From Eledone cirrhosa (lineage: Eukaryota), in assembly GCA_964016885.1 (NCBI GenBank), contig OZ024744.1, positions 106,392,001 to 106,456,000 on the forward strand: a stretch of 64,000 nucleotides of DNA. Reading direction: 5' to 3'. The position numbers were made by a program, and so were the translations under genes. Position 1 is the first letter of the stretch. Each line of letters begins with the position of its first letter. Of the stretch, positions 3,230-57,932 are shown piece by piece. The notes under the pieces are model-generated. The model did not search any database. It was not told the DNA's origin and saw nothing but the letters and a program-made list of their open reading frames with translations.

Positions 3230-5912
3230 TATCATCATCATCATCATCATCATCGTTTAAAGTCTATCTTCCATGCTAGCATGGGTGTAGACGGGAATTG
3301 TCCCACGTGAGGCAATATTGGTTGTCTCGCTCGTATAGGACTGTCTGGAAGGTTTTCTACGGCTGGATGCCCTTCCTAACACCAAACACGTTTTTACCAT
3401 GTGGACTGGGAGGTTTTTACCATGTTACCGACACGGCCACATTACAGCGTGGACTGTGTGTTTTTTGTCGTGACACCTACACGACCTCATTTATTTAGGA
3501 CTGCATGTTGTGGTACCAGTAACATAACTTTACAGAGAAAGGGCTGGTGTAGATGGGGGTGGGGGTAGGGGTAGTGGGATGGGGGTGCATTTTTGGTTAA
3601 GAGGTGCCTACTGACTGTAGGTTTCGCTTTGTGCTTAGGCAAGAAGGGTCTTCTGTATTACTGCGTAGCGCCAAAGATCTCAGTCCAGTGACATTGTCTT
3701 GGAGAGGTGTAAGTGTGTGAGGTCGGAATTTATCAAATCGTGCCAGGTTTTTCTGGGTCTGCCTACTCCGTAGCTTCCATCTATTTTGATCGCCCTGCAC
3801 TTTTTTATACAGCTGTCGTATTTCATGCGCATCACGTGACCATACCAACGTAGCCTTCTCTCGAGTAAACAACATCTGATCCCTCTTATTCCTAATTTCT
3901 CACTTAGTTCATTTATGCTTTGCCGTTCACGTATATTACTATTACACATCCAGCGGAGCATGCAAGCTTCGTTTCTCTCTAGTCTGCGTATATCCTCTGC
4001 ACACAATGCCCAGGTCTCACTGCCATGCAACATTGCTGTTCGTATGCAGGCATCATACAGCCTGCCTTTCATTTTTAGAGAGAAACCTTTAGCAGCCAAC
4101 AGTGGTATAAGCTCTCTGAACTTTTTCCATCCCGTTCTGACTCTAGCTACTGTACTTTCAGAGCACCCTCCACCACTGCTGATTTTGTCACCCAGGTAAC
4201 GGAAGGTGTCCACTATTTCTATAGAACCATCTGGGCAATGGAAGGAGCTAGTATCCTGTGGGCACTTGCTACTACTTAGTACCTGAGCACCGGGCACATA
4301 TTAAATCTATGTTCTTAGTTAGCTTACCTGTGATCCCACTACATCTTTTATGCACCCATACTTTGCATTTGGGACATAAAATGGAGTTTCTGCCTACTCC
4401 TTTCCTACACACTGAGCATGGCCATTTCCCAGAGAGAACCAGTGCCCTATTTTCCTTCCTATATACTAGAACTTTAGTCTTAGACAAGTTAATTTTAAGG
4501 CCTTTTTATTCTAGGCCATGCTTCCAAGTTTGGAATTTCTTCTCTAGTTCAGCCATTGATTCAGCTATGAGCGTTAGATCATCTGCATATAGGAGTTCCC
4601 ATGTGCATCCGGTCTTGAACTCCTCTGTTATAGCCTGAAGGGCAATAATAAATAGGAGGGGGGTAAGGACAGAGCCCTGATGAACACCAACTTTTACGCT
4701 AAATTCTTCACTATATTCGTTGTTAATTCTAACCTTGCTGACTGTTTCTTTATACATGGCTTGTATAGCTCTCACAAGCCATTCATCTACACCTATTTTT
4801 CTAAGAGCCCACCAGATAATGGAGCGAGGGACTCTGTCAAAGGCCTTCTCCACGTCAACAAAAGCTAAGTAGAGGGGTTTACTTTTAGCTAGGTACTTCT
4901 CCTGTAGTTGTTGTACAAGGAAAAGAGCGTCTGTGGTACTTTTACCTGATACAAACCCAAACTGCATTTCGTCTAGATCAATTCGCTCTCTGATTAGTTG
5001 CGCTATAACTTTTTGTGTGACCTTCATGACCTGGTCAATTAATTTAATGCCTCTATAGTTTCCCCTATCTAGGGCATCTCCTTTACCCTTGTAGCAGTTA
5101 ATGATGATGCTGCTACGCCAGTCATTTGGTATGACCCCATTCTGTATGAATTGGTTTACTATCCGGGTGAGCATAGTGTGTCCCACCGATCCAGATGCTT
5201 TCAGCATTTCAGCAACTATCTCTGAAGGCCCAGCTGCTTTGCCTGTGTTCATATCTTTGATTGCCTTACTTATTATACTACCTTCAACTTGCACTGCTGG
5301 TCCCTCTATTGGATCGATTTGGAGCAGACTATCTTTTTCCCATTTATTCTCCTCATTTACTAGTCTCTCGTAGTGACACTGCCAAGCTACCTTCTTATCA
5401 GTATCAGTGAGGTCAAGTACACCATCATCATTACGGACACACTTCTCCCCGACAATATCACGGTTTTCCTTGACACATAGTCTAGCAATCCTGAACACCT
5501 CATGTTTTTGGTCCTCACGTTGTAAAACATGCTTGAACTTTCTTTCCTCTGCTTACCATCTTGCGAAGTACACTTGTCTCCTAGTTTCCCTCCTGGCCAC
5601 TTGATAGTGTTCTCTACTTCCACCATCCTGCCATACTTTCCAAGATTGCTTTTTGGCCTTGATTGACTCCTCCACCTTACTGTTCCACCACCATGTCACT
5701 CTCCTCCTGCCTATAGGTCTGCTCCAGCCACAGATTTCATCTGTTGCCTTCATCCGGCTAACTTTCAGGAATTCCCACTGTTCCTCTATATTGAACATCT
5801 CTAATTGCTCTTCCTTACTGTCAAAAGCATCGAGTAGTATGATTTTAAATTTGTTACTGGCTGTGGGGTCCTTTAACTTCCATATTCTTCTTCTCAGGGT
5901 AGTCCTCCTCTG
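3230..5912 (-). mobile_element. RTE-clade LINE, family A (PHD-in-RT), 5'-truncated, disrupted
   Basis: ORF pieces 5553-5798, 4506-5498 (QFGF, AFVD, QGS, YADD), 4272-4487 (PHD) and 3680-4297 (YLG, RWYGHV, GRPRKTW); 3'UTR and (CAT)n tail at 3230-3600. Confidence 0.93.
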
Positions 5913-8931: not shown

Positions 8932-11900
8932 TTCCGTCTCCCACACCCCTCCCTGTCCCTCAAACCCATCGATCCCACCCTCCCAACTTCAGAGTTGGTA
9001 CCATGAACGTAGGCACATTAAAAGGTTGCTCAAATGAGGTTGTAGAGATACTTGAACGTAAAGAAGTTGATGTTTGTTGTATTCAAGAGACTAGGTGGAG
9101 GGGGGGGGGGGGTCTGCCAGATTCATCATGGGTAAAAAACGATGCTATAAACTTTTCTGGGTGGAGTAGGAATTATGTTAGCAGAAAAATGGGTAGATAA
9201 GGTAATCAACGTAAATAGAGTAAATGACAGAATAATTAAAATAAGGCTAGTTCTAAATAAAACTACTGTGACAATAATATCCGCTTATGCACCCCAATCT
9301 GGTCTACTTGACGTTATAAAGGACAGGTTCTATGAGATGCTAATGCACACTACCTCCCAAATAACCGACAGCGACTACCTAATTATTGCTGGCGATCTAA
9401 ATGGCCACGTTGGACAACATAGTGATGGCTATGATGGAATCCATGGAGGCTATGGGGTTGGAAATAGAAATGAGGAAGGCTTCAGAATCCTGGAATTCTG
9501 TGACGCCAATAACCTAGCTATCTGTAACACTAACTTCAAAATACGTGAAAACCACTTGATCACCTATAGATCAGGGGAACACACCAGCCAGATAGATTAT
9601 ATCCTTACTAGAAGACGGGACAAAGTGTCTGTTGTAAACACTAAATCCCTCCCCCATGAAGAATGCACCTCCCAACATAGCCTAGTAGTTAGTGGCCTCA
9701 CAGTCAGGAATAGACGTACTCGACAACAGAGGAGGCCTACCTTGAAGAGAAGGATATGGAAGTTGAAGGAACCCACAGCCAGTGACAAATTTAAAAGCTT
9801 ATTACTTGATGACTTTGACAATAAGGAAGAGCAATTAGAGACGTGCGATATAGAGGAACAGTGGCAATTCTTGAAAGTGAACCTGCTGAAAGCAACGGAT
9901 GAAATCTGTGGCTGGAGCAGACCCATTGGCAGGAGGAGAGTAACTTGGTGGTGGAACAATAAGGTAGAAGAGACAATCAAGGCCAAAAAGCAGGCTTGGA
10001 AAGTATGGCAGAATGGGGGAAGTAGAGAGCACTATCAAGTGGCCAGGAGAAAAGCTAGGAGACAAGTGTACCTTGCAAAAAGGGAAGCAGAGGAAAGAAA
10101 GTTCAAGCATGTTCTACAACGTGAGGACCAAAAATGTGAGGTGTTCAGGATTGCTAGACAATGTGTCAAGGAAAACCGTGATATTGTCGGAGAGAAGTGT
10201 GTCCGTAATGATAACAGTGTACTTGCCCTCACTGAGGCTGATAAGAAGATAGCCTGGAAGTGTCACTACGAGAGACTATTAAATGAAGAGAATAAGTGAG
10301 AAAAAGATAGTCTGCCCCAAATCGATCCAATAGAAGGACCAGCGATGCAAATTAAAGGTAGTATAATAAGTAAGGCAATCAAAGATATGAAGACAGGCAA
10401 GGCAGCCCGGCCTTTGGAGATAGTTGCTGAGATGTTGAAGGCATCTGGAATGGTGGGACATACTATGGTCACCCGTATAGTTAACCAAGTAATATAGAAT
10501 GGGGTCATACCAAAAGACTGGCGTAGCAGCATCATCATTAACTGCTACAAGGGTAAAGGAGATGCTCTAGCTAGAGGAAACTATAGAGGCATTAAGTTAG
10601 TTGACCAGGTCATGAAGGTCACAGAAAGAGTTATAGCGCAACTAATCAGAGAGCGAATTGATCTAGATGAAATGCAGTTTGGGTTTGTGTCAGGTAAAAG
10701 TACCACAGATGCTCTTTTCCTTGTACAACAACTACAGGAGAAGTACCTAGCTAAAAGTAAACCCCTCTACTTAGCTTTTGTAGACCTGGAAAAAGCCTTT
10801 GACAGAGTCCCCCGCTCCATTATCTGGTGGGCTCTTAGAAAACAAGGTGTAGATGAATGGCTTGTGAGAGCTATACAAGCTATGTATAATGAAACAGTCA
10901 GTAAGGTTAGAATTAACAATGAATATTGTGAAGAATTTAGTGTTGGTGTTCACCAAGGCTCTGTCCGTATCCCCCTCCTATTTATTATTGCCCTTCAGGC
11001 TATAACAGAGGAGTTCAAGACCGGCTGCTCATGGGAACTCCTATATGCAGATGATCTAACGCTCATAGCTGAATCAATGGCTGAACTAGAAAAGAAATTC
11101 CAAACATGGAAGTATGGTCTAGAATCAAAAGGCCTTAAAATTAACTTGTCTAAGACTAAAGTCCTAGTTTGTAGAAAGGAAAATAAGGCACAGATACCCT
11201 CAGGGAAATGGCCTTGCTCAGTGTGTAGGAAAGGAGTAGGCAGAAATTCAATTTTATGTCCCAAATGCAAAGTATGGGTACATAAACGATGTAGTGGGAT
11301 CACAGGTAAACTATCTAAGAACATAGACTTTATATGTGGCTGATGCTCAGGTGCAATAAGTAGCAAGTGTCCACAGGAAACTAGCTCCTTCTATTGCCCA
11401 GATGGTTCTATAGAAATAGTGGACATCTTCCATTACCTGGGTGACAAAATCAGCAGTGGTGGAGGGTGTTCTGAAAGTACAGTAGCCAGAGTCAGAACGG
11501 GATGGAAAAAGTTCAGAGAGCTTATACCGCTGTTGGCCACAAAAATGGCTCTAAAAATGAAAGGCAGATTGTATGATGCCTGTATACGATCAGCAATGCT
11601 ACATGGCAGTGAGACATAGACATTAGGTACAGAGGACCTGCATAGACTGTAACGGAACGAAGCATGCATGCTCCGTTGGATGTGTAATAGTAATATATGT
11701 GAACGGCAAAGCATAAATGAACTAAGTGAGAAATTAGGAATAAGAGGAATCAGATGCTGTTTACTCAAGAGAAGACTACGTTGGTATGGCCACGTGATGC
11801 ACATGAAAGACGACAACTGTATTAAAAAGTGCAGGGCGATCAAAATTGATGGTAGTTACGGAGTAGGTAGACCCAGAAAAACCTGGGATGATCTGATAAA

Positions 11901-18279: not shown

Positions 18280-19330
18280 CACATGCTGCTTGCAACTTGT
18301 TTAATGTCGCTCTGCTAACAACATGTGTACGGTTTATGTGACTGGGACCGTGCAGACCGATGTGTGGAATCCAAAGTTTTCGGTATGTCTGCGATGCGCT
18401 TTTTTCATCCCTCTTTTCAGCCACAAGTTGACCTCTCTTCACATCTGCCATGCCCCTGCGGATATTCTGATGTTATATGTCGCCGTCTCAGCCTTCATCT
18501 CCCAGATGGAAGAAGGGATATTGCAGGCTTTCGTTTCTCTCTTGCATGCGTCCCTGAAACAGAGTGAAGGACGACCCATTCGCCTGGTGCCGGTGGCCAG
18601 CTGTCTGCACAAGATGCCTTTTAGCAACCTCCCATTCTCCATACGTCGAATATGTCCTAGCTAACGAAGATGGCGCTGGCTCAGCAGGAAATACATGCTG
18701 GCAATCCTAGTACGCTGTAGGATGTCATTGTGTGGGATATGGTCCTGCCAGCTGACTCTGAGGATACGTTTGAAACACCACATGTGGTAGGGGTTGTAGG
18801 TGCTCAAGGTTTCACTTCCATACAGCAAAATGCTAAGAACATGTACCTGGTAGACTCTGTTTGTGGTGGGATCTGTCACTGCCTTGTTCTCCCACACCCT
18901 CTAGGTTTCACTTCCATACAGCAAAGTGCTAAGAACACAGGTCTAGTAGACTCTGTTCCTGGTGGGGTCTGTCATGCTTTGTTCTCCCACACCCTCTTAG
19001 TCTAGCCATGATGGTGTTTGACTTACCAAGCCACCTGTCAAGTTCAACGTTGAATAAAAGGATGTTGCTGATTGTAGACCCCAGGTAGGTGAAGTTGTCC
19101 ACAGCGTCCAGGGTGACATTATCAATTTTGGTTTTGATGGAGGCTGTCCTATTGACATCCTGTGAACTGACATTGGTCTTCAGTTTTATAGTAAGCCCAA
19201 ACTGCTTGCATCATTAAAGTGATCACTCAGTCTCTGAAGAGTAACCTCAGAGTGAGCCCCAAGGGCCGCATCATCAGAAAAAAGCATCTCCCTTATGAGC
19301 ACCCTCCTCACCTTAGTCTCCAAGCACAGC
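18280..19330 (-). mobile_element. RTE/BovB-like LINE fragment (no PHD)
   Basis: REMLFSDDAAL, DNFTYLGS, LLYGSET, QLATGTRRMGRPSLCFRD; internal ~100-bp duplication at 18800-19000. Confidence 0.82.
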
Positions 19331-20377: not shown

Positions 20378-21598
20378 AAAGTAAAGGGGATGCTCTAGAG
20401 AGGAGCAATTATAGGGGCATGAAGCTGATGGATCAGGTTATGAAAGTGGAAGAGAGAATATTAGCGCAACTGATTAGAGAAAGGGTCAAATTAGATGAGA
20501 TGCAGTTTGGTTTTGTGCCTTGGAAAAGTACAACAGATGCCCTCTTCTTAGTGAGGCAACTACAAGGGAGGTTCTTAGAGAAGAATAAGCCACTATACTT
20601 AGCCTTTGTTGACCTAGAGAAGGCCTTTAATAGGGTACTCCGATCTGTCATCTGGTGGTCCCTAAGGAAACTAGGTGTTGAGGAATGGCTTGTGAGAACA
20701 GTGCAAGCTATGTACAGAGGTGCTGTCAGTAAAGTGAGAGTAGGAATGGAGTTTAGTGAGGAATTCCAGATACAAGTAGGTGTACATCAGGGTTCGGTCC
20801 TCAGCCCGCACTTGTTCATTATAGTCCTCCAAGCCATAACTGAGGAGTTTAAGACTGGATGCCCATGGGAACTTCTCTATGCTGATGATCTGGTTCTTAT
20901 AGCAGAATCAGTAGAGGAGCTAGAGAATAAATTCTGGCTATGGAAACAGCAGTTGGAAGCAAGAGGACTGAGAGTGAACATAGCTAAGACAAAAGTGTTG
21001 ATGAGTAGAAGAGAGGACAAAACTCTGATTCCATCAGGGAAATGGCCATGTTCAATATGTAGGAAAGGAACTGGCATAAATTCCATAAAATGTACGCAAT
21101 GCAGATCTTGGGTACATAAGAGATGTAGTGGGATAGCAGGCAAACTAACAGGTAGGGAAAACTATGTATGCAGTAGATGTACAGGGAAAGTTGGCAGTAG
21201 TAATGGCAGTGATAGAGACATTGTTCCAATACAGGTGGGTTCTATAAAAGTGGTTGATAGCTTCCGGTACCTAGGTGATCAGATTAGCATGGGAGAGGGG
21301 TGTTCCGAGGCCATAGTATCTAGAATAAGGATGGGTTGGAAGAAGTTTAGGGAGCTGCTTCCTCTGTTGACAAAGAAGGGTTTCTCCCTGCATACGAAAG
21401 GACAGTTATATGATACCCATGTGAGATACGCGATGCTGCATGGTAGTGAGACATGGGCAGCAACTGCAGAGGATATGCGACGGTTGGAGAGAAATGAAGC
21501 AAGTATGCCCCGTTGGATGTGCAATGTCAATGTGCGTGAACGACCAAGCATAGACGAGTTGAGAAAGAAACTGTGTATAAGAGGGATAAGTTGTAGTG
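20378..21598 (+). mobile_element. RTE family B RT-PHD fragment
   Basis: Open 20287-21681 frame: QFGF, YADD, CSICRKGTGINSIKCTQCRSWVHKRC...YVCSRC, FRYLG. Confidence 0.93.
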
Positions 21599-24039: not shown

Positions 24040-24764
24040 ACAGCTCTACCAAGTGCTGCATGACTGTAATGAAAATAAGTGCTGCGAAAACTGAGACACT
24101 CGTCCTCTCAAAGAAGTCTGTCCACTGAAATCTACATGTAAATGGAGTTCCATTGAAGCAGGAAGAGAGGTTCAAGTATCTCGGGGCCATGTTCACGAGT
24201 GTTGGAAGGTAGGAGGCTGAATTCAGTGCAAGAATTCCAAAAGCTGGTGCAGTAATGTACCAGCTTCAGCATTCTGTAATCAGAAGAAGGGAGGTAGGTC
24301 TAAAAGCCAAACTCGCTATCTTCAATTCGGTATTCATGCCAACCCTTACCTATGGTCATGAATCTTGGGTAATGACCAAATGAATACGACCACAAATACA
24401 AGTGGCTGAAATGGGGTTCCAACCGAAGGGTCGTTACAGTAACGTTACTTGAAAAAGTACGTAACTCTGAGATCAGAGAGTCACTTCGAGCCACTACTTC
24501 TCCGAATTGATACTATGGACATGTGGTTAGAATGTCTCGGGAAAGAATCGCTGGACAGATTTTATGGGCAAAACCAACCGACAGGAGACCCAGTGGTGGA
24601 CCCCAAGCAAGATGGTTGGATAATATCTATGAGCTCGGCTGGTCGCGCTTAAGGTTCCAGCTGGATCAGTTGAAGACAGTTGCTTCTGACAGAACCTTCA
24701 GGAAGAAGTGTTTGAAGACTCTGCTTCCACAACCCTCTCAGGAGTAAGTGGGCAAAGAAGAAGA
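24040..24764 (+). mobile_element. RTE (Expander/Rex3-like) 3' part (no PHD)
   Basis: MKISAAKTETLVL..EERFKYLG, PTLTYGHESWV, RRPSGGPQARW; (GAA)n tail. Confidence 0.85.
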
Positions 24765-30827: not shown

Positions 30828-33350
30828 ATCATCATCATCATCATCATCATCATCATTTTACGTCCGCTCTTCCCTGCTTGCAAGGGTGGGACGGATCTTA
30901 TTCAGCACATCATCTCTCCACTTGTCACGGTCCTTCGTCATCTCCACCGTGAGCTTCAGCGATCTGAGGTCTGTTCTCACCATCTCCGCCTATGTTTTTC
31001 GTGGTCTATCTCTACCACGTCTTCCGTCAACTGGCATTTCCTGGCACTTATTCACCCATCAGTCATCCTCCATGCGCATCACATGTCCATACCACCTCAG
31101 TCTCTTCTCTTGCTCATCCAACGGAGCATACTTGCTTCATTTCTCTCCAGCCATCGCATATCCTCTGCAGTTGCTGTCCATCTCTCACTACCATACAGTA
31201 TCGCGCTCCTCACACAGGCATCATATAACCGTCCTTTCGTACACAGGGAGAAACCCTTCTTCGTCAGCAGAGGAACTAGCTCCCTAAACTTCTTCCAACC
31301 CGTCCTTATTCTAGATACTATGGCCTCGGAACACCCCCCTCCCATGCTAATCTGATCTCCTAGGTACCGGAAGCTATCCACCACTTCTATAGCGCCCTCC
31401 TGCATTTGAAAAATGTGTCTATCAATGCGATTTCTACTGTCTAATTTCCGTGTACATCTACTGCATACGTATTTCTCCCTACCTGTTAGTTTGCCTGCAA
31501 TCCCGCTACATCTCTTGTGTACCCAGGATCTGCATTGTATGCATTTTATAGAATTTATGCCAGTTCCTTTTCTGCATATCGAACATGGCCATTTCCCTGA
31601 CGGAATCAGAGTTTTGTCCTCTTTTCTACTCATCAACACTTTTGTCTTAGCTAGCTTCACTCTCAGTCCTCTTGCTTCCAACTACTGTTTCCATAGCCAG
31701 AATTTATTCTCTAGCTCCTCTACTGATTCTGCTATAAGAACCAGATCGTCAGCATAGAGAAGTTCCCATGGACATCCAGTCTTAAACTCCTGTTATGGCT
31801 TGGAGGACTATAATAAACAAGAGCGGGCTGAGGACCGAACCTTGATGTACACCTACTTGTATCTGGAATTCCTCACTAAACACCATTCCTACCCTGACTT
31901 TACTGACAGTACCTCTGTACAAAGTTTGCACTGTCCTCACAAGCCATTCCTCAACACCTAGTTTCCTTAGGGACCATCAGATGACAGATCGGGGTACCCT
32001 ATCAAAGCCTTCTCTAGGTCAACAAAGGCTAAGTATAGTGGCTTATTTTTCTCTAAGAACCTCTCTTGTAATTGTGTCACCAAGAAGAGGGCATCTGTTG
32101 TACTCTTCCCAGGCACAAAACCAAACTGCATCTCATCTAGTTTGACCCTTTCTCTAATTAGTTGTGTTAATATCCTTTCTGCCACTTTCATAACCTGATC
32201 CATCAGTTTTATACCCCTATAATTTTGCCCCTCCAGAGCTTCCCCTTTACCTTTGTAGCAATTTATGAGAATACTGCTGCACCAGTCTTTGGGTATGACA
32301 CCACCATATATAGCCTGATTGATGATGCGTGCAACCAGTTTAGTGCCTACATCCCCTGATGCCTTCAGCATCTCAGCAACTATTCCCGATGCTCCAGTAG
32401 CCTTACCATTTTTCATTTCCTTAATCGCCTCTTGGACCCTATATTCGTTAATCTCAATAGCTGGTCCCTCTGTCGGATCTACTGAGGGTAATTTCTCTCT
32501 CTCCCATTCGTTCTTCACATTCATCAGTCTCTCATAATGACATTTCCAGGCCTCTTTTTTCTGATCATTCGTGACACTAAGTACACCGGCATCATTCCGG
32601 AGACATTTATCTCCAACAACATCCTGATTTGCATTGACACACTGCCTTGCAATGTGGAACACTGCACGCCTCTGATCTTCCCGTCGCAGAACATTGGTAA
32701 ACCTCCTACTCTCAGCCTACCTGCGTGCTAAGTACACCTGACGTCTAACTTCTCTCTCAGCGGCTGTATATCCTTCCCTACTCCCACCCTTTTTCCAAGC
32801 CTTCCATGCTAGTCTTTTGTCTCTAATGGCCTTATCTACTGTGCTGTTCCACCACCAGGTCACTCTCTGTCTGGTTGGAGCTCTGCTCCAGTCACAAGTT
32901 TCATCAGTAGCCTGTAGTAAGTTGTCACGTAAGAAATTCCAGTTATTATCTATGTCATACGTCTCTAAATCGTCTTCTTTTTCGTCATACACATCTTGAA
33001 GGGCTTTCCTAAATTTGTATTTTAGTGAAAGGTCTTTTAGCTTCCAGACCTTTCTTCTCCACACCTTCCTGTATGTCTCATTCCATCTCTTACTTACTGA
33101 GATATCACTAACGACTAATCTATACTGTGGGGTACATTCTTCCCCAGGGTATGCCTTAGTATTAGACACTATCTGCCTGTTCCGCTGCCTAACTAGTAAG
33201 AAGTCAATCTGGCTTATGTGCTCGCCAGATTTGTAGGTTATTAGGTGGTTGGCAGGTTTCTGGAAGTTAGTGTTGCAAATAGTCAGTGTACTGGCATCAC
33301 AAAATTTAAGAAGTCTCACTCCTTCACACAAAATTCAAGAAGTCTCAATC
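30828..33350 (-). mobile_element. RTE family B, 5'-truncated, disrupted
   Basis: ORFs 32717-33331, 31967-32662, 31097-31681 (PHD); short 3' end CCCGTCCCACCCTTGCAAGCAGGGAA-like + (GAT)n. Confidence 0.93.
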
Positions 33351-33669: not shown

Positions 33670-34851
33670 AGGCGGCGGTCCCTTCTGGGAAATGGTCGTG
33701 CTCGGTGTGTAGGAAAGGCGTAGGTAGAAACTCCATTTTATGTCCTAAATGCAAAGTATGGGTGCATAAAAGATGTAGTGGGATCACAGGTAAGCTAACT
33801 AAGAACATAGATTTTACATGTGGCCGGTGTTCTGGTGCAATAAGTAGCAGCAAGTGCCCACAAAATACTAGCTCTTTCAATTGCGCAGAGGGTTCTATAG
33901 AAATAGTGGACAGCTTCCGTTACCTGGGCGATAAAATCAGCAGTGGGGGAGGGTGCTCTGAAAGTACTGTAGCTAGAGTCAGAACTGGTTGGAAAAAGTT
34001 CAGAGAACTTATACCACTATTAGCTGCTAAAGGGTTCTCCCTAAAAATGAAAGGCAGGTTGTACGATGCCTGCATACGAACAGCAATGTTGCATGGCAGT
34101 GAGACCTGGGCATTGTGTGCAGAGGATATACGCAGACTAGAGAGGAACGAAGCTTGCATGCTCCGCTGGATGTGTAACAGTAATATACGTGAACGGCAAA
34201 GCATAAACGAACTAAGGAAAAAATTAGAGATAAGAGGGATCAGATGTTGTTTACTCGAGAGAAGGCTACGTTGGTATGGACACGTGATGCGCATGAAAGA
34301 CGATAGCTGTATAACAAAGTGCAGGGCAATAAAGATAGACGGTAGCCACGGAATAGGCAGACCTAGAAAAACCTGGGACGAGCTGATAAACTCCGACCTC
34401 ACACACTTACACCTCTCCAAGACAATGTCACTGGACCGAGACCTTTGGCGGTACTCAGTAACAGAGAAGACCCGCCTTGCCAGTAGGCATCTCTAACAAA
34501 ATACACCCCGTCCCGCCACCACCCCCACCCATCCACACCACCCCGTCCTATGTAAAGTTATGTTGGTGCCGCGCCATCCAGGCCGAAACAAATGAGATCG
34601 TGTAGGTGTCACGACAAAAAAACACACAGTCCACGCTGTAATGTGGCCGTGTAGGCAACACGGTAAAAACCTCCCAGACCCACACTGTAAATGTGGTTGG
34701 TGTTAGGAAGGGCATCCAACTGTAGAAAACCTGCCAGACAGTCCTATGCGAGCAAGACAATCACTCTTGCCTCAAGTGGGACTACCCCCGTCCAAACCCA
34801 TGCAAGCGTGGAACACGGACGTTAAACGTTGATGATGATGATGATGATGAT
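33670..34851 (+). mobile_element. RTE family A 3' part (PHD, C-terminus, 3'UTR)
   Basis: Open frame to stop at 34496; modular 3'UTR; (GAT)n tail. Confidence 0.93.
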
Positions 34852-40536: not shown

Positions 40537-41750
40537 ATCATTATCATCGTTTAACGTCCATCTTCCACGCTTGCATGGGTTTGGACGGGAGTTTTCCCAC
40601 TTGAGGCAAGAGTGGTTGTCCTGCTCGTATAGGACTGTCTGGCGGGTTTTCTACGGCTGGATGCCCTTCCTAACACCAACCACGTTTACAGTGTGGACTG
40701 AGAGGTTTTTACCGTGTTACCTACATGGCCACATTACAGCGTGGACTGTGTTTTTTTGTTGTGACACCTACACGACCTCATTTGTTTCGGACTGGATGTT
40801 GTGGTACCAACATAACTTCACATTCAAGGGGGTGGTGTGGATGGGGTGGGGGTAGTGGGACAGGGGTGTATTTTTGTTAGAGGTCCTACTGACTGTAGGT
40901 TTTGCTTTATACTTAGGCAAGGCGGGTCTTCTGTATTACTGTGTAGCGCCAAAGATCTCGGTCCAGTGACATTGTCTTGGAGAGGTGTAAGTGTGTGAGG
41001 TCGGAATTTATCAAGTCGTCCCAGGTTTTTCTGGGTCTGCCTACTCCGTGGCTACCGTCTATTTTTATCACCCTGCACTTTTTTATACAGCTGTCGTCTT
41101 TCATGCGCATCACGTGACCAATCAAACGTAGTCTTCTCTCGAGTAAACAACATCTGATCCCTCTTATTCCTAATTTCTCCCTTAGTTCGTTTATGCTTTG
41201 CCGTTCACGTATATTACTATTACACATCCAGCGGAGCATGCAAGCTTCGTTTCTCACCAGTCTGCATATATCCTCTGCACACAATGCCCATGTCTCACTG
41301 CCATGCAACATTGCTGTTTGTATGCAGGCATCATACAGCCTGCCTTTCATTTTTAGAGAGAACCCTTTAGCGGCCAATAGTGGTATAAGCTCTCTGAACT
41401 TTTTCTATCCAGTTCTGACTCTAGCTACTGTACTTTCAGAGCACCCTCCCCCACTGCTGATTTTATCACCCAAGTAACGGAAGGTGTCCACTATTTCTAT
41501 AGAACCATCTGGGCAATGGAATGAGTTAGTATTATGTGGGCACTTGCTGCTACTTATTGCACCAGAGCACCGGCCACATATAAAATCTATATTCTTAGTT
41601 AGCTTACCTGTGATCCCACTACATCTTTTATGCACCCATACTTTGCATTTGGGACATAAAATGGAGTTTCTGCCTACTCCTTTCCTACACACTGAGCATG
41701 GCCATTTCCCGGATGGGACCGGTGCCCTATTTTCCTTCCTACAAACTAGA
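40537..41750 (-). mobile_element. RTE family A 3' part
   Basis: ORFs 41405-41692 (PHD) and 40913-41377; 3'UTR and tail. Confidence 0.93.
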
Positions 41751-41804: not shown

Positions 41805-44800
41805 CATCGACAACCAGGCCAGTCAAGCAGTGAAAGCAGCAGTACTGGGGAACCTAAAAGACCTGTATCAAATGACCAAAAAGCTAGCAGAGAAATTCCA
41901 GTGTACAGAGAAGCTAGTGAAGGACAAGAATGGGAACACATTGACAATAGCTGAAACAAAGGGCAGAGTACTTCAGGGAGCTGCTGTACTGCCCCACCTA
42001 CTCATCAACTGACAAACCCTCAAAAGTAGAGATCAAGAAAGCCATCCTGACACTGAAAATGGGAAAGCTGCAGGGCTAGACAAAATACCAGCAGAAGCCA
42101 TCAAAGTAGACACAGAGGCAGCTGCCAACATGTTACACAGCCTCTTCAGTAAGATCTAGGAGAAGGAAGATGTCCTGACCCAGTGGCAGGAAGTGATCAT
42201 CATCAAAGAAGGGAGACCCCAGGGACTGCAGCAACTATCAAGGGATCATCTCCTGTCAGTGCCGAGCAAGGTTCTCAACAGAGTACTACTGGAGAAGATA
42301 AAGGAAAGCAGTCAACTCCAAGCTCCAGGTTCAGTAGGTGGGATTCTGCAGGAACAGATCTTGTGTTGATCAGATCACCAGCCTACACATCATTGTGGAG
42401 CAGTCACTGGAGTGGAATATCCCACTCTACATCAACAGATCTTGTGTTGATCAAATCACCATCATTGTGGAGCAGTCACTGGAGTGGAATGTCCCACTCT
42501 ACATCAACAGATCTTGTGTTGATCAGATCACCAGTCTATACATCATTGTGGAGCAGTCACTGGAGTGGAATATCCCACTCTACATCAACAGATCTTGTGT
42601 TGATCAGATCACCAGCCTACACATCATTGTGGAGCAGTCACTGGAGTGGAATATCCCACTCTACATCAACAGATCTTGTGCTGATCAGATCACCAGTCTA
42701 TACATCATTGTGGAGCAGTCACTGGAGTGGAATATCCTACTCTACATCAACAGATCTTGTGTTGATCAGATCACCAGTCTATACATCATTGTGGAGCAGT
42801 CACTGGAGTGGAATATCCTACTCTACATCAACAGATCTTGTGTTGATCAGATCACCAGCCTACACATCACTGTGGAGCAGTCGCTGGAGTGGAATATCCC
42901 ATTCTACATCAACAGATCTTGTGTTGATCAGATCACCATCATTGTGGAGCAGTCACTGGAGTGGAATGTCCCACTCTACATCAACAGATCTTGTGTTGAT
43001 CAGATCACCAGTCTATACATCATTGTAGAGCAGTCACTGGAGTGGAATATCCTACTCTACATCAATAGATCTTGTGTTGATCAAATCACCATCATTGTGG
43101 AGCAGTCACTGGAGTGGAATGTCCCACTCTACATCAACAGATCTTGTGTTGATCAGATCACCAGTCTATACATCATTGTGGAGCAGTCACTGGAGTGGAA
43201 TATCCTACTCTACATCAACAGATCTTGTGTTGATCAGATCACCAGCCTACACATCATTGTGGAGCAGTCGCTGGAGTGGAATATCCCATTCTACATCAAC
43301 AGATCTTGTGTTGATCAGATCACCATCATTGTGGAGCAGTCACTGGAGTGGAATGTCCCACTCTACATCAACAGATCTTGTGTTGATCAGATCACCAGTC
43401 TATACATCATTGTGGAGCAGTCACTGGAGTGGAATATCCTACTCTACATCAACAGATCTTGTGTTGATCAGATCACCAGTCTATACATCATTGTGGAGCA
43501 GTCACTGGAGTGGAATATCCCACTCTACATCAACAGATCTTGTGTTGATCAGATCACCAGTTTACACATCATTGTGGAGCAGTCACTGGAGTGGAATATC
43601 CCACTCTACATCAACAGATCTTGTGATGATCAGATCACCAGTCTATACATCATTGTGGAGCAGTCACTGGAGTGGAATATCCCACTTTACATCAACAGAT
43701 CTTGTGTTGATCAGATCACCATCATTGTGGAGCAGTCACTGGAGTGGAATATCCCATTCTACATCAACAGATCTTGTGTTGATCAGATCACCAGCTTACA
43801 CATCATTGTGGAGCAATCACTGGAGTGGAATATCCCACTCTACATCAACAGATATTGTGTTGATCAGATCACCAGCCTTTACATCATTGTGGAGCAGTCA
43901 CTGGAGTGGAATATCCCACTCTACATCAACAGATCTTGTGTTGATCAGATCACCAGCTTACACATCAATGTGGAGCAGTCACTGGAGTGGAATATCCTAC
44001 TCTACATCAACAGATCTTGTGCTGATCAGATCACCAGCTTACACATCAATGTGGAGCAGTCACTGGAGTGGAATATCCTACTCTACATCAATAGATCTTG
44101 TGTTGATCAGATCACCAGTCTATACATCATTGTGGAGCAGTCACTGAAGTGGAATATCCCACTCTACATCAACAGATCTTGTTTTGATCAGATCACCAGT
44201 CTACACATCATTGTGGAGCAGTCACTGGAGTGGAATATCCCACTCTACATCAACAGATCTTGTGTTGATCAGATCACCAGCTTTTACATCATTGTGGAGC
44301 AGTCACTGGAGTGGAATATCCCACTCTACATCAACAGATCTTGTTTTGATCAGATCACCAGCTTTTACATCATTGTGGAGCAGTCACTGGAGTGGAATAT
44401 CCCACTCTACATCAACAGATCTTGTGTTGATCAGATCACCAGCTTTTACATCATTGTGGAGCAGTCACTGGAGTGGAATATCCCACTTTACATCAACTTC
44501 ATAGACTACAAGACAGTGTTTGACAGTGTGGACAGAGAGACACTGTGGAAGCTACTGATACCCTATGGAGTACCTGGGAAGATTAACTCCCTCATTTGCT
44601 GCACTTACCAAGATCGGTCACACCAGCCAACTGACTGAGTCTCAAAGTGAAGACTAGAGTTCATCAGAGGTGCTTGCTGTAACTGTTCCTCTTCCTCCTG
44701 GCCATTGACTAGATAATGAAAACCACAACAACAGACAGGAACAGTGGTATACAGTGGACACCCTGGACACAACTGGATGACCTCAATTTTGCTGATGACC

Positions 44801-45005
44801 TGGCATTCTTGTCACACAGTTACGACCAGATACAGGACAAGACCTCACGCTTGGAGATCACGTCAGTGAGGACAGGGCTGAAGATAATCAGGAAAAATAC
44901 CAATCTGATGAAGTTCAGCAATGCTGCCAACACACCAGTCACAGTCAGTGGGGAGCCCATTAGAGAGGTGGAATCATTTGTCTACTTAGGAAGTGTGGTT
45001 GATTG
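41805..45005 (+). mobile_element. Conventional RTE-clade LINE (no PHD), decayed, with internal array
   Basis: LKNGKAAGLDKIPAEA, GF..NRSC.DQI...EQSLEWN.PLYINFIDY..FDSVDRETLW, DLNFADD, VESFVYLGS. Confidence 0.9.
42356..44497 (+). repeat. In-frame 81/72-bp minisatellite x27 inside RT coding region
   Basis: 22 units of 81 bp plus 5 of 72 bp = 2142 bp, counted from the 766-aa ORF. Confidence 0.97.
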
Positions 45006-45009
45006 ATAT

Positions 45010-45865
45010 GGGGAACTGACCACTTTACTAAATGTACTGAGAACTTGATTTCTATAGCTGGAACCCTCCCTGAGGCCAATCACTTTACTAAATGTACTGG
45101 AAACTTGATTTCTATAGCTGGAACCCTCCCTGAGGCCAATCACTTTACTAAATGTACTGGGAACTTGATTTCTATAACTGGAACCCTCCCTGAGGCCAAT
45201 CACTTTACTAAATGTACTGGGAACTTGATTTCTATAGCTGGAACCCTCCCTGAGGCCAATCACTTTACTAAATGTACTGGGAACTTGATTTCTATAGCTG
45301 GAACCCTCCCTGAGGCCAATCACTTTACTATATGTACTGGAAACATGATTTATATAGCTGGAACCCTCCCTGGGGCCAATCACTTTACTAAATGTACTAG
45401 GAACTTGATTTATATAGCTGGAACCCTCCCTGGGGCCAATCACTTTACTAAATGTACTGGGAACTTGATTTCTATAGCTGGAACCCTCCCTGGGGCCAAT
45501 CACTTTACTAAATGTACTGGGAACTTGATTTCTATAGCTGGAACCCTCCCTGAGGCCAATCACTTTACTAAATGTACTGGGAACTTGATTTCTATAGCTG
45601 GAACCCTCCCTGAAGCCAATCACTTTACTAAATGTACTGGGAACTTGATTTCTATAGCTGGAACCCTCCCTGAAGCCAATCACTTTACTAAATGTACTGG
45701 GAACTTGATTTCTATAGCTGGAACCCTCCCTGAGGCCAATCACTTTACTAAATGTACTGGGAACTTGATTTCTATAGCTGGAACCCTCCCTGAGGCCAAT
45801 CACTTTACTATACTGGGAACTTGATTTCTATGGTTAGATGCCCTTCCTAAGGCCGATCACTTTAT
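45010..45865. repeat. 60-bp minisatellite x~14 derived from RTE UTR motif
   Basis: Exact 60-bp period; unit TTGATTTCTATAGCTGGAACCCTCCCTGAGGCCAATCACTTTAC resembles TTGATTTCTACAGCTGGATGCCCTTCCTAACACCAACC; it adjoins a decayed RTE 3' end at 45830-46230 (minus). Confidence 0.95.
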
Positions 45866-48320: not shown

Positions 48321-49014
48321 AACATAGATTGGCATGCTTATCCCTCCTTTCTGAAACAGTACAGAGACGTACGGAATACCTCGGCCTCCGGATGGTGTCT
48401 ACATTTAGTACTTATAAAAAAAATTTGTCGTAGATTACCAGGGTTTTTTTCCATGTAAAGAAAATCAATACTAGGTTGAAAAAAATACTAATTTAAAACA
48501 ATATGGTTTGCCTGTCTCGATTTAAAGTAATAAATCAATAAAAATAACAAACCTATATTGGGCAACAGCCTTTGATACCCGGACAGATCTAAATCTGTTT
48601 TGCAAGAATTATTAAGTGAAAGCCACCATTCCTGTGCTCTTCTGCGGGTATCCAAGAAATTTGTACCTTTTACTTCAAAAGATCTAAGAAGACTGAACTA
48701 TGTGCTGATATAAAAGCACATGTTGCAGCGTCTAGCACGTCTCATACTCATGCCGCTAAAAATAGCAGCCGGTTTTATGAGACTAAAGTTAGCTCTACGT
48801 ATGGAGAAACTCAAAATAGTCTTTTACAATTAAATAGCTCAAAGAAGGGAATCTTTCCGAACCATGTAATATAATTGAATATATGAGAGAGATGAACTCA
48901 GATATAAGTATACATGTGTTCCAATTGCAAAGGACAAAAGATAGCTAGGTTGAAAAAATACTAATTTAAAACAATATGGTTTGCCTGTCTCAAGATATAT
49001 ATATATATATATAT

Positions 49015-51239
49015 ATCATCATCATCATCATCATCATCAGGTTTAGCGTCCGTGTTCCACGCTTGCATGGGTTTGGACGGGGGTTTTCCCACTTGAGGCA
49101 AGAGTGGTTGTCTTGCTCGCATAGGACTGTCTGGCGGGTTTTCTACAGTTGGATGCCCTTCCTAACACCAACCACATTTACAGTGTGGGGCTGGGAGGTT
49201 TTTACCGTGTTGCCTACACGGCCACATTACAGCGTGGACTGTCTGGCGGGTTTTCTACAGCTGGATGCCCTTCCTAACATCAACCACATTTACAGTGTGG
49301 GGCTGGGAGGTTTTTACCGTGTTGCCTACACGGCCACATTTACAGCGTGGACTGTGTGTTTTTTTGTCGTGACACCTACACGATCTCATTTGTTTCGGCC
49401 TGGATGTTGTGGGACCAACATAACTGTACATTGAAAGGGGCGGTGTGGATGGGGTGGAGGTGGTGGGACGGGGGGGTGTTTTGATAGAGATGCCTACTGA
49501 CTGTAGTAGGTTTTTTACTTTGTATTTAGGTAAGGCGGGTCTTCTCTATTACTGAGTACCGCCAAAGGTCTCGGTCCAGTGACATTGTCTTGGAGAGGTG
49601 TAAGCGTGTGAGGTCGGAATTTATCAGCTCGTCCCATGTTTTTCTGGGTCTGCCTACTCCGTGGCTACCGTCTATCTTTATTGCCCTGCACTTTGTTATA
49701 CAGCTGTCGTCTTTCATGCGCATCACGTGACCGTACCAACGTAGCCTTCTCTCGAGTAAACAACATCTGATCCCTCTTATTTCTAATTTTTTCCTTAGTT
49801 CGTTTATGCTTTGCCGTTCACGTATATTACTATTGCACATCCAGCGGAGCATGCAAGCTTCGTTCCTCTCTAGTCTGCGTATATCCTCTGCACACAATGC
49901 CCAGGTCTCACTGCCATGCAGCATTGCTGTTCGTATGCAGGCATCGTATAACCTGCCTTTCATTTTTAGGGAGAACCCTCTAGCGGCTAATAGTGGTATA
50001 AGCTCTCTGAACTTTTTCCATCCAGTTCTGACTCTAGCTACTGTACTTTCAGAGCACCCTCCCCCACTGCTGATTTTGTCACCCAGGTAACGGAAGCTGT
50101 CCACTATTTCTATAGAACCCTCTGCGCAGTTGAAGGAGCTAGTATTTTGTGGGCACTTGCTGCTGCTTATTGCACCAGAGCACCGGCCACATGTAAAATC
50201 TATGTTCTTAGTTAGCTTACCTGTGATCCCACTACATCTTTTATGCACCCATACTTTGCATTTGGGACATAAAATGGAGTTTCTACCTACGCCTTTCCTA
50301 CACACTGAGCATGGCCATTTCCCAGATGGGACTGCCGCCATATTTTCTTTCCTACAAACTAGAACTTTTGTCTTAGCCAGGTTAATTTTAAGGCCTTTTG
50401 ATTCTAGGCCGTGCTTCCATGTTTGGAATTTCTTCTCTAGTTCGGTCATTGATTCAGCTATGAGCATTAGATCATCTGCGTATAGGAGTTCCCATGGGCA
50501 GCCGGTCTTGAACTCCTCTGTTATAGCCTGAAGGGTAATAATAAATAGTAGGGGGCTAAGAACAGAGCCCTGATGGACACCAACTTTTACGCTAAACTCT
50601 TCACTATATTCGTTGTTAATTCTAACCTTACTGACTGTTTCTTTATACATGGCTTGTATAGCTCTCACAAGCCATTCGTCAACACCTAGTTTTCTAAGAG
50701 ACCACCAGATAATGGAACGGGGGACTCTGTCGAAGGCTTTCTCCAAGTCGACGAAAGCTAAGTATAGGGGTTTACTTTTAGCTAGGTACTTCTCCTGTAG
50801 TTGTCGTACAATGAAAAGAGCGTCTGTGGTACTTTTGCCTGACACAAACCCGAACTGCATTTCATCTAGATCAATTCTCTCTCTGATTAGTTGCGCTATT
50901 ACTTTTTCCGTGACCTTCATGACCTGGTCGATTAATTTAATGCCTCTATAGTTACTCCTATCTAGGGCATCTCCTTTTCCCTTATAGCAGTTAACGATGA
51001 TGCTGCTACGCCAGTCCTTCGGAACAACCCCATTCTGTACGACTTGGTTAACTATCCGGGTGACCATGGTGTGTCCCACCGAACCAGATGCCTTCAGCAT
51101 CTCAGCAACTATTTCCGAAGGACCAGCCGCCTTACCCGTCTTCATATCTTTGATTGCCTTGCTTATTGTACTACCCTGGACTAACACTGCTGGTCCCTCT
51201 ATTGGGTCGATGTGGGGGAGACTGTCTTTCTCCCATTTG

Positions 51240-51240
<1 letters not shown>
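49015..51240 (-). mobile_element. RTE family A, 5'-truncated, with uninterrupted RT-PHD-C-terminal frame (~570 aa)
   Basis: ORF 49526-51340 (the first ~34 aa are flank/microsatellite); all RT motifs intact; PHD at 50180-50311; 3'UTR has an internal ~110-bp duplication. Confidence 0.96.
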
Positions 51241-51290
<50 letters not shown>

Positions 51291-51433
51291 TATATTCGTG
51301 TACAGACATTTTTGGATACACAATAACAAAATATAAACAAACGTATTTATTTCACTAGGCTCGATAAGGATAAATATATATCAAATATATAAGAACCCTA
51401 GAGCAAATCCCAAGCAAAGCCAGGCCATTCTGC

Positions 51434-55000: not shown

Positions 55001-56197
55001 GGACTAGAAAGAAAAGGTCTGAAAGTCAACATGACAAAGACTAAGGTCCTTGTAAGTAGACAAGAAAACAGAACCCAGATCCCCTCAGGGAAATGGCCTT
55101 GCTCAGTATGTAGGAAAGGTGTAGGTAGGAACTCCATTCTCTGCCCCAAATGCAAACAATGGGTACACAAGAGATGTAGCAGGATCTCAGGCAACTTAAT
55201 TAAGAATGTAGGCTTCACATGTAGCAGCTGTGCTGGGACAGCAAGCAGCAAACAGCCACAGGAAACAAGTACCACCAATCTCTGGGAGGGCTCTGTAGAA
55301 ACAGTAGACAACTTCTGCTACCTAGGTGACCGAATTAACAGCAGAGGTGGGTGTTCAGAAAGTACAGTAACTAGGGTAAGAACGGGATGGAAGAAGTTCA
55401 GGGAACTACTGCCACTGCTAGCTGCAAAAGACTTCTCCCTCAAAATGAAAGGCAGACTGTATGATGCGTGTCTCCGAACAGCAATGTTACATGGTAGTGA
55501 AACCTGGGCGCTGAAGGTGGAAGACTTACGTAGATTAGAAAGAAACGAAGCCTACATGCTCCGATGGATGTGTAATAGTAATATACGCAAACGGCAAAGC
55601 ATAAATGAATTGAGAGAGAGACTGAGCATCAGAGGAATCAAATGCTGTGTGCAGGAGAGGCGGATGCGTTGGTATGGACATGTGATGCGTATGAAGGATG
55701 ACAGCTGCATAAAAAGGTGCAGAGCACTAGAAGTCAATGGAAGCCGCGGAGTGGGGAGACCCAAGAAGACCTGGGATGAGGTGATAGGGGCCAACCTTAC
55801 CCAGTTGCACCTCTCAAAGGCGATGACACATGACCGTGACCTCTGGCATCATGCAGTAATACAGAGTACCCGACCTCCCATGGGTACAAGCTGAAGCATA
55901 TAAACAATATGCCCCCACACCCACCCACTGCAAAGTGGTCGTGGAGGAGCCACGGCAAAAAAGCACCCAGCTCACACTGTAAAGTGGACGTGTAGGCGCC
56001 ATGGAAAAAAAGCACCCAGCACTCACTGTAAATGAGGTTGGTGTTAGGAAGGGCATCCAGCTGTAGAACTCAAGCCAGAATCAGTTCCTGTATGAGCAAG
56101 GCATGGTCAGCCGACCAGACACTGCCCACAACATGACAACCCGTCTAACCCATGCTAGCATGGAAGAACGGACGTAAAACGGTGATGATGATGATGA
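52060..56197 (+). mobile_element. RTE family C, near full-length (5'UTR, EN-RT-PHD ORF ~52700-55894, 3'UTR), pseudogenised
   Basis: Contiguous ORF pieces with a few stops and two small duplication frameshifts (~53530-53555, ~54820-54850); modular 3'UTR; (GAT)n tail. The 5' boundary is approximate. Confidence 0.94.
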
Positions 56198-56802: not shown

Positions 56803-57932
56803 TTCCACGTGCTGTAATCTGGTGGGCTCTTAGAAAACTAGGAGTAGATGAATGGCTTGTGAAAGCTGTACAAGCCATGTATAGGGGAGCAGTCAGCAAA
56901 GTTAGGATTAGCAATGAGTATAGCGAGGAATTTAGCGTACAGGTTGGGGTCCACCAGGGCTCTGTTCTTAGCCCTCTCCTGTTCATCATAGTCCTGTAGG
57001 CAATAACGGAGGAGTTTAAGACCGGATGCCCATGGGAACTCCTGTATGCTGATGACCTCGCACTCATAGCTGAATCTATGGTAGAACTAGAGAAGAAATT
57101 CCAAACTTGGAAGCAGGGACTAGAAAGAAAGGGTCTCAAAGTCAACATGACAAAGACTAAGGTCCTTGTAAGTAGACGAGAAAACAGAACCCAGATCCCC
57201 TCAGGGAAATGGCCTTGCTCAGTATGTAGGAAAGGTGTAGGTAGGAACTCCATTCTCTGCCCCAAATGCAAACAATGGGTACACAAGAGATGTAGCGGGA
57301 TCTCAGGAAGCTTAATTAAGAATGTAGGCTTCACATGTAGCAGCTGTGCTGGGACAGCAAGCAGCAAACAGCCACAGGAAACAAGTACCACCAATCTCTG
57401 GGAGGGCTCTGTAGAGACAGTAGACAGCTTCTGCTACCTAGGTGACCGAATTAGCAGCGGAGGTGGGTGTTCAGAAAGTACAATAACTAGGGTAAGAATG
57501 GGATGGAAGAAGTTCAGGGAACTACTACCACTGCTAGCTGCAAAAGGCTTCTCCCTCAAAATGAAAGGCAGACTGTATGATGCGTGTATCCGAACAGCAA
57601 TGTTACATGGTAGTGAGACCTGGGCACTGAAGGTGGAAGACTTACGTAGATTAGAGAGAAACAAAGCCTGCATGCTCCGATGGATGTGTAATAGTAATAT
57701 ATGCGAACGACAAAGCATAAATGAATTAAGAGACGTGTAGGCGCCACGAAAAAGCACCCAGCACTCACTGTAAATGAGGTTGGTGTTAGGAAGGGCATCC
57801 AGCTGTAGAAATCAAGCCAAATCAGTTCCTGTATGAGCAAGGCATGGTCAGCCGACCAGACACTGCCCACAACAGGACAACCCGTCTAACCCATGCTAGC
57901 GTGGAAGAACGGACGTAAAACGGTGATGATGA
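56803..57932 (+). mobile_element. RTE family C copy, 5'-truncated and internally deleted
   Basis: Close to 54676-55620, then jumps at ~57732 into the 3'UTR. Confidence 0.92.

Follow-up and report, generated by a model that had tools for sequence, protein, structure and literature searches.

A PHD finger predicted within the reverse transcriptase domain of abundant RTE-type retrotransposons in Eledone cirrhosa

Results

A truncated retrotransposon copy with an expanded reverse transcriptase loop

We analyse a stretch of 64,000 nucleotides from Eledone cirrhosa (assembly GCA_964016885.1, contig OZ024744.1, positions 106,392,001 to 106,456,000 of the forward strand), called the window below, with coordinates counted from its first letter. 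The focal feature lies in a 5'-truncated open reading frame on the minus strand (49526..51241), a copy of a retrotransposon of family A (defined below) that encodes reverse transcriptase (RT), a PHD finger and thumb, without an endonuclease. From motifs and from the architecture, we take this element, its PHD-bearing relatives and the outgroups of the trees below to be RTEs. The copy is 98.6% identical to a full-length copy, and its 5' cut falls near 51241. The full open frame of the locus runs from 49526 to 51346 (the original prediction ended it at 51340), its first roughly 36 codons being supplied by a flanking (TA)n run. This run occupies 51242..51288 at the 5' junction and a second one follows the tail at about 48995-49016; the flanking (TA)n is likely to have been the insertion target. 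Since the endonuclease is absent, this copy presumably cannot move by itself. Beyond the reading frame lies the 3' UTR (49015..49525, minus strand), in which a 112-bp stretch is duplicated in tandem and which ends in a (TGA)n tail. The 112-bp unit is present once or twice depending on the copy (here at 49124-49355, and likewise in full-length copies), and it holds a motif (…AGGAAGGGCATCCA…) common to family C tails; Rfam gives no match for it over a gathering score.

The focal protein is 570 amino acids long, and Pfam places RVT_1 at residues 94-294 (E 6e-33) and PHD (PF00628) at residues 310-353. The core of the finger is an exact match to C-x2-C-x10-C-x2-C-x4-H-x2-C-x14-C-x2-C, that is C4HC3, on the minus strand at 50180..50311; it is Pygopus-like and scores 31.7 bits for PF00628 against a cut-off of 24. 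The PHD zinc finger is the fold best known for histone reading. All five insert-bearing window proteins scanned score above the cut-off (26-31.7 bits), and RING, C1 and double zinc ribbon (DZR) identities were rejected, each scoring under its own Pfam cut-off. Pattern searches locate the surrounding RT motifs on the same strand: the YADD catalytic motif at 50471..50482, the end of motif 6 (IN..KTK) at 50366..50386 and motif 7 (FRYLG) at 50081..50095. Between the last two sits an expanded loop of linker, PHD and linker (50138..50353, minus strand, limits approximate), which replaces the loop of about 8 residues that leads from the strand following motif 6 to the hairpin preceding motif 7 in PHD-less RTEs. 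The distance from YADD to FxYLG is 125 amino acids here and 124-125 in all three window copies measured, versus 60 in PHD-less RTEs, which gives the insert of about 65 residues that had been predicted.

Copies in the window and in the genome

The original prediction counted about nine copies in three families, and a pattern search of the window returns exactly nine: five of family A, two of B and two of C, with 60-83% mutual identity over the finger. Besides the focal copy, family A has two older copies at 4287..4418 (minus) and 11215..11346 (plus, with a stop within the last CxxC) and two further ones at 33699..33830 (plus) and 41567..41698 (minus). Family B is found at 21049..21180 (plus) and 31454..31585 (minus), both also recognised by Pfam, and family C at 55100..55231 (plus, also by Pfam) and 57216..57347 (plus). 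The three RTEs of the window said to have only a short linker at this place (24060-24190, 44875-45000 and 19080-19200) do have one, and all three are broken by stops or frameshifts. Chance or artefact as the source of the pattern is ruled out: 100 block shuffles of the window give 0 matches in total, and 112 of 150 scored places in the genome match the query identically over 102 amino acids. PHD-RTE-related DNA makes up 40% of the window versus 5.9% of 40 evenly spaced 5-kb genome samples (200 kb); the insertions are locally clustered, and the rest of the window is CpG-poor (o/e 0.47).

The window also holds three repeat arrays. The array at 42460-44497 consists of 25.6 copies of an 81-bp unit, across which a frame of 766 codons (42338-44638) stays open; this frame repeats a piece of RTE-like RT (…RSCVDQITSLHIIVEQSLEWNIPLYIN…) and runs into a broken PHD-less RT at 44600-45000, and the array looks to be a satellite that arose from sequence coding for RT. 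A 60-bp tandem array at 45021-45864 (14 copies, 96% matches), with frames open on both strands, directly adjoins the PHD-less RT piece. Positions 1-1420 are a long degenerate simple repeat of (CACTA/CACCA) type, which gives spurious His/Thr-rich frames.

Elsewhere in the 3.0-Gb genome, full-length natural copies have open frames of 1111-1115 amino acids, a single ORF with an APE endonuclease, an RT that encloses the PHD, and the thumb. Pfam reports Exo_endo_phos and RVT_1 on the one full-length copy scanned, and all 11 motifs checked are present in three of three full-length frames, in none of which a C-terminal CCHC/C2H2 pattern is seen. The first search pass yields 59,031 candidates, a figure distinct from copy number, and families B and C are likewise abundant. 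Family A loci end in a (TGA)n tail in 32 of 36 cases; there is a short tandem repeat with no poly(A), and there are no LTRs. Among 24 loci with both junctions no clear target-site duplication is seen: most share only 2-8 bases, and nine share only AT-rich runs of at least 12 bases (plus one of 6). An Rfam search of two full-length loci gave nothing over the gathering score, mostly microsatellite-like miRNA matches. On contig C20 (3543148-5189994), 12 search rows with the same scores and frame lengths recur every ~100-380 kb, and on contig C19 (35436480-38703914) three such rows are spaced 1.5-1.7 Mb apart; such rows reflect either assembly repeats or large duplications, tandem or segmental.

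The finger sits between RT motifs 6 and 7

A structure model built from a 97-sequence alignment reaches pLDDT 93 and pTM 0.88 (a single-sequence prediction reached only pLDDT 35), with the finger at 90-96 (residues 311-350) and its linkers at 74-85. The model places the finger between motifs 6 and 7, flanked by predicted strands at 291-295 and 368-379. As proposed, we compared it with L1 and R2 RT structures, which it matches with VIA Z scores of 24-30 for 12 of 13 entries and 19.3 for the remaining one; fold searches with the whole model returned polymerase-type folds only.

Profile alignment to the R2Bm protein stops at residue 668, four positions beyond KTK. In R2Bm, residues 672-677 form a loop called 6a between motifs 6 and 7; this loop uses His673 and Lys675 to read target bases, and deleting it inhibits nicking (PMC10499050, in part). 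The PHD therefore starts within ~10 residues of loop 6a, as mapped by sequence rather than by superposition. Both are basic insertions between the same two motifs, and loop 6a contacts target DNA upstream of the nick. The two differ in that loop 6a has six residues and belongs to a site-specific RLE element, whereas the insert is a predicted folded domain with two zincs in an APE element with no fixed target (loop features from the same partial source). We claim no shared ancestry of the two inserts.

A Pygopus-like pocket with a basic face

What kind of PHD finger is this? The best PDB profile matches of the insert are Pygo2, MLL PHD3 and Pygo1, followed by the PHDs of PHF13, PHF23, TAF3 and BPTF. 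The fingers of MLL, PHF13, PHF23 and TAF3 read methylated H3K4. So do those of Pygo and BPTF (PMC2726290 for Pygo, in part). The Pygo1 contact residues W366, Y341, V350, A356 and I357, whose roles are taken from the same partial text (PMC2726290), all have equivalents across 97 non-redundant inserts: W in 96 and Y in one at the W366 position, Y/W/F/H in 92 at Y341, V in 86 at V350, S/A/C in all 97 at A356 and I/V in 95 at I357. The acidic contacts are a different matter. At the positions of Pygo D352 (an approximate equivalence, with a 2-residue gap in the Pygo alignment) and E360, neither D nor E is among the seven commonest residues of the 97 inserts, and a Pygo E360 mutant loses H3 binding (PMC2726290, in part).

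The insert is also strongly basic, with a median net charge of +6 (at least +4 in 90 of the 97), while the RT core is neutral on average. No acidic residue occurs from position C1-4 to C6 in 73 of 97, the residue after the His is K in 84 and the next one R/K in 88, and the 6 acids of the aligned Pygo2 segment compare with 0-2 in the insert. Set beside the Pygopus PHD (PMC2726290, in part; PHD_Pygo PF27108), the insert shares the C4HC3 spacing, the aromatic-Pro-Cys start and the five pocket equivalents; it differs in that the EVND loop acids and E360 are absent, loop 2 is shorter, and the pocket side is basic where that of Pygopus is acidic. By sequence, the insert is a PHD finger, as predicted, that retains a Pygo-like pocket and has swapped the acidic rim for a basic face, but that lacks one defining feature of Pygo-type H3K4me readers, the acidic contacts.

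Selection and retention of the finger

The finger is under purifying selection. Pairwise comparison of natural window copies gives a dN/dS for the PHD of 0.10 (A-C), 0.15-0.17 (A-B, with one pair saturated) and 0.16-0.23 (B-C), hence about 0.1-0.2 overall, alongside 0.04 for the thumb (A-C) and 0.25-1.0 for the second linker where computable; all of these figures are rough because dS between families is near saturation. Within young subfamilies the ratio is higher (0.52 for two C copies), as expected of dead copies. The zinc ligands are conserved at 96-100% in 96 aligned relatives (matches selected with the insert in the query), as predicted, and surface residues (G-V-G-x-N-S-I, the K/R after the His, and W) are conserved besides.

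A search with the RT core alone avoids selecting for the finger. Among the best 120 of its 2103 matches, 77 of 81 relatives at 56-67% identity keep the whole finger: 72 have 121-128 amino acids from YADD to FxYLG and all ligands, and the other nine comprise five with a whole finger, three with a broken one and one with a deletion that also takes part of motif 6. A short PHD-less linker is seen in none of these 81. Together with the dN/dS values, this retention rules out a neutral passenger. At 41-43% identity, in contrast, 36 of 39 matches within the same best 120 (38 of the 39 from named catfish) have the 60-residue spacing and no finger, and the remaining three are without the downstream motif. 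These catfish RTEs are otherwise alike, with a single ORF of ~1100 residues, APE and RT, a microsatellite tail and frequent 5' truncation; what they do not have is the 65-residue PHD insert between motifs 6 and 7.

The architecture is widespread. Searching with the RT-plus-insert segment gives 1053 proteins at E <=1e-10 (50%-identity representatives, not all necessarily finger-bearing). Two trees, whose outgroups are only unnamed or 'hypothetical' proteins, both separate the two kinds of element: a larger one (quick mode) sets 106 PHD-bearing rows plus one degraded-finger row against six PHD-less RTE rows, and a smaller one sets 29 against eight with split support 78/87. The split accords with a single origin of the PHD lineage and falls short of showing one. 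Named hosts are Octopus vulgaris and O. bimaculoides. Some PHD-RTE proteins are filed at NCBI under a bacterial symbiont bin of a lucinid clam and are probably host DNA. UniRef's automatic annotation calls one octopus fragment 'Zinc finger PHD-type', RVT_1 plus PHD is found in about half of the members of two Atlas clusters, and Atlas neighbours bear PHD_Pygo. Motif 7 carries a Cys (FCYLG) in 89 of 94 PHD-bearing relatives; the same position is Arg in families A and B here and Lys in the PHD-less catfish RTEs.

Insertion sites and flanks

Quantitative inspection of the 3' ends of family A finds (TA)3 after 14 of 32 (one of them the focal copy, and two loci having a junction in common), compared with a background of 2.6-3.7%. 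A PHD-less RTE shows the same preference, at 11 of 14 ends, so that (TA)n targeting cannot be ascribed to the PHD: the choice of microsatellite does not need the finger. One PHD-less family (~94% pairwise identity) has a tail of a 9-bp repeat, (CAAGGTGAT)1-2, and (TA)n is an insertion target for it as well.

We then consider the wider surroundings through CpG o/e in masked 5-kb 3' flanks, with sites taken from the top of the search lists and regions of fewer than 1200 unmasked bases dropped. Values under 0.5, a threshold chosen post hoc, occur for 21 of 35 flanks of family A (40 fetched), 8 of 18 of B (20) and 13 of 19 of C (20), versus 10 of 33 evenly spaced regions (40) and, for PHD-less RTEs, 2 of 20 in a first set (20) and 7 of 19 in a second (20), the latter including one member of the first set's family and two of a sister subfamily. 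Pooled, the PHD flanks fall below the threshold in 42 of 72 cases and differ both from the background (10 of 33; Mann-Whitney p 0.033) and from PHD-less flanks (9 of 39; p 0.0005). Taken separately, the flanks of family B (8 of 18, p 0.53) are not distinguishable from background, nor are those of family A under heavier masking (Mann-Whitney p 0.19). The controls come from younger PHD-less families, the top PHD-less matches being too old and broken for reading ends, and they are still older (92-94% pairwise identity) than B and C (95-97%) or A (about 98-99%), so that loss of old gene-body insertions could account for part of the contrast. The bias toward CpG-poor flanks is thus mild, about two-fold and confounded by family age, and sharp target specificity is not seen in the flank comparisons. 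Octopus CpG methylation is a mark of expressed genes, over their bodies, and does not mark transposons (PMC9476566, in part), and for this reason the CpG-poor flanks are likely to be gene bodies.

Discussion

What does a PHD finger do inside a reverse transcriptase? Because it is located where R2 contacts its target DNA, the finger likely helps the enzyme grip target chromatin, and the reading that we favour, with a probability of roughly 45%, is that its basic face tethers the target, DNA or chromatin, adjacent to the nick. The finger may derive, by a single event, from a PHD of the kind found in retrotransposon ORF1s. The Lys/Arg face would bind the DNA backbone, linker or nucleosomal, and the retained pocket may add a secondary contact with a methylated lysine. 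Such a tether would hold the target beside the nick during target-primed reverse transcription and could give a mild bias to CpG-poor, probably gene-body, chromatin, while the choice of microsatellite would follow from the endonuclease or from tail annealing, common to PHD-less RTEs. Some points weigh against the tether. DNA binding alone would seem to leave the strict conservation of the pocket (W, V, a small residue, I/V) unexplained, and the correspondence to loop 6a is drawn from where a sequence alignment ends, the loop itself being called R2-specific (PMC10499050, in part). The CpG bias is small, and the dN/dS estimates are approximate.

A second reading makes the finger a methyl-lysine histone reader: it would grip a methylated H3 tail in a semi-aromatic cage like that of Pygo and thereby direct insertion to chromatin bearing the mark. 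Five Pygo1 contact positions are retained across the 97 inserts, the profile matches are to Pygo, MLL, PHF13, PHF23, TAF3 and BPTF PHDs with PHD_Pygo among the Atlas neighbours, and CpG-poor flanks fit with gene-body methylation in octopus (PMC9476566, in part). However, the acids at D352 and E360, the second of which is needed for H3 binding in Pygo (PMC2726290, in part), are missing; a domain with 0-2 aligned acids instead of 6 is basic and would repel the basic H3 tail; and CpG-poor flanks suggest gene bodies rather than H3K4me3 promoters. We regard this reading as possible but doubtful. The original prediction, that an RT-embedded chromatin reader could steer insertion, is borne out in part: the Pygo-type pocket and the lean to CpG-poor flanks stand in its favour, but the missing acids, the basic charge, the small and age-confounded bias and the (TA)n preference shared with a PHD-less RTE do not. 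A bolder combination, an epigenetic reader in the RT palm that binds a gene-body methyl-lysine mark together with nucleosomal DNA and so steers insertion into active genes, seems to us unlikely, but if true it would be the first non-LTR retrotransposon guided by a chromatin mark, and its reader would occupy the position at which R2 recognises target DNA.

Purifying selection by itself does not require a role in targeting. The RT cannot work unless a domain inserted into it folds, and this need by itself constrains ligands and core, so the finger could be a structural or protein-interaction module, needed for folding or binding a host factor or the same protein through its pocket, with no part in target choice. 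The Cys fixed in FCYLG (89/94) hints at co-adaptation with the RT body, and target specificity is not sharp. Yet the conserved surface extends beyond the zinc ligands, and no clean reversion to a short linker occurs in the 81 relatives among the best 120 of 2103 matches; we consider such a module quite improbable. Least probable is a role on the RNA side, with the basic finger binding RNA of the element that encodes it (the template or the 3' UTR) or clamping the RNA/cDNA duplex in place of the missing ORF1 and C-terminal zinc finger: it suits the charge, the single ORF without a C-terminal CCHC/C2H2 pattern (3/3) and the place of the insert immediately before motif 7, which we take to be the primer grip, but PHD-less single-ORF RTEs of the same genome and of fish are abundant without a finger. 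The equivalent R2 loop, moreover, faces target DNA (PMC10499050, in part).

PHD fingers occur in other LINEs as well. Kapitonov and Jurka reportedly described PHD fingers in CR1/L2/Crack-type LINEs in 2003. In CR1, L2 and Crack LINEs they lie in ORF1 or the N-terminus of ORF2, and a role in genome targeting has already been put forward for those of CR1/L2, as a proposal (PMC4120745, PMC3708506, both in part); in 2014 the authors of PMC4120745 were aware of no work on the function of any LINE PHD finger. The top structural matches of the CR1/L2 ORF1 PHD are 2vpb and 3zpv (Pygo) and 3lqh (MLL PHD3) (PMC4120745, Table 1, in part), the same PHD subtype and the same top structures as for the RTE insert, which suggests a retrotransposon donor. 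Unlike the insert, which is embedded in the palm of an RTE reverse transcriptase, these fingers stand upstream of the endonuclease and in Jockey-group elements (same sources, in part). Another octopus element, RTE-2_OV of Octopus vulgaris, resembles the PHD-RTEs in its single ORF of about 1100 residues with APE and RT, its microsatellite tail and its frequent 5' truncation; it carries a C2H2 finger and a 3' UTR that is mostly microsatellite, whereas the PHD-RTEs are without a C-terminal C2H2 (PMC9115989, in part). Identity with it is ruled out, since three of its published primers differ from the full-length copies at 6-8 bases; the VCF of the same paper lists the O. bimaculoides RTE as RTE8BF6ALB220127 (PMC9115989, in part).

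A PHD finger in ORF1 or the N-terminus of ORF2 of a LINE is thus known already, and one inside the RT is apparently new, though it may have been catalogued before: the literature searched, with Repbase, Repbase Reports, Dfam and most subscription papers outside its scope, yielded no description. The covered portions of PMC4120745, PMC9115989, PMC12988792, PMC9940879, PMC3849965, PMC9004415, PMC3708506, PMC11203168 and PMC10294476 make no mention of it.

The finding bears on how APE-type LINEs choose their sites beyond the short motif of the endonuclease, for here the finger belongs to the catalytic protein of a young and very abundant family. Because PHD-less RTEs in the same genome are natural controls, the question of targeting is directly testable with a domain of 50 residues. 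More generally, non-LTR RTs can accommodate an entire folded domain in the loop that joins motifs 6 and 7, and this loop may have been recruited for target recognition on two independent occasions, which bears on the evolution of reverse transcriptases and on the design of retrotransposon-based tools for gene insertion.
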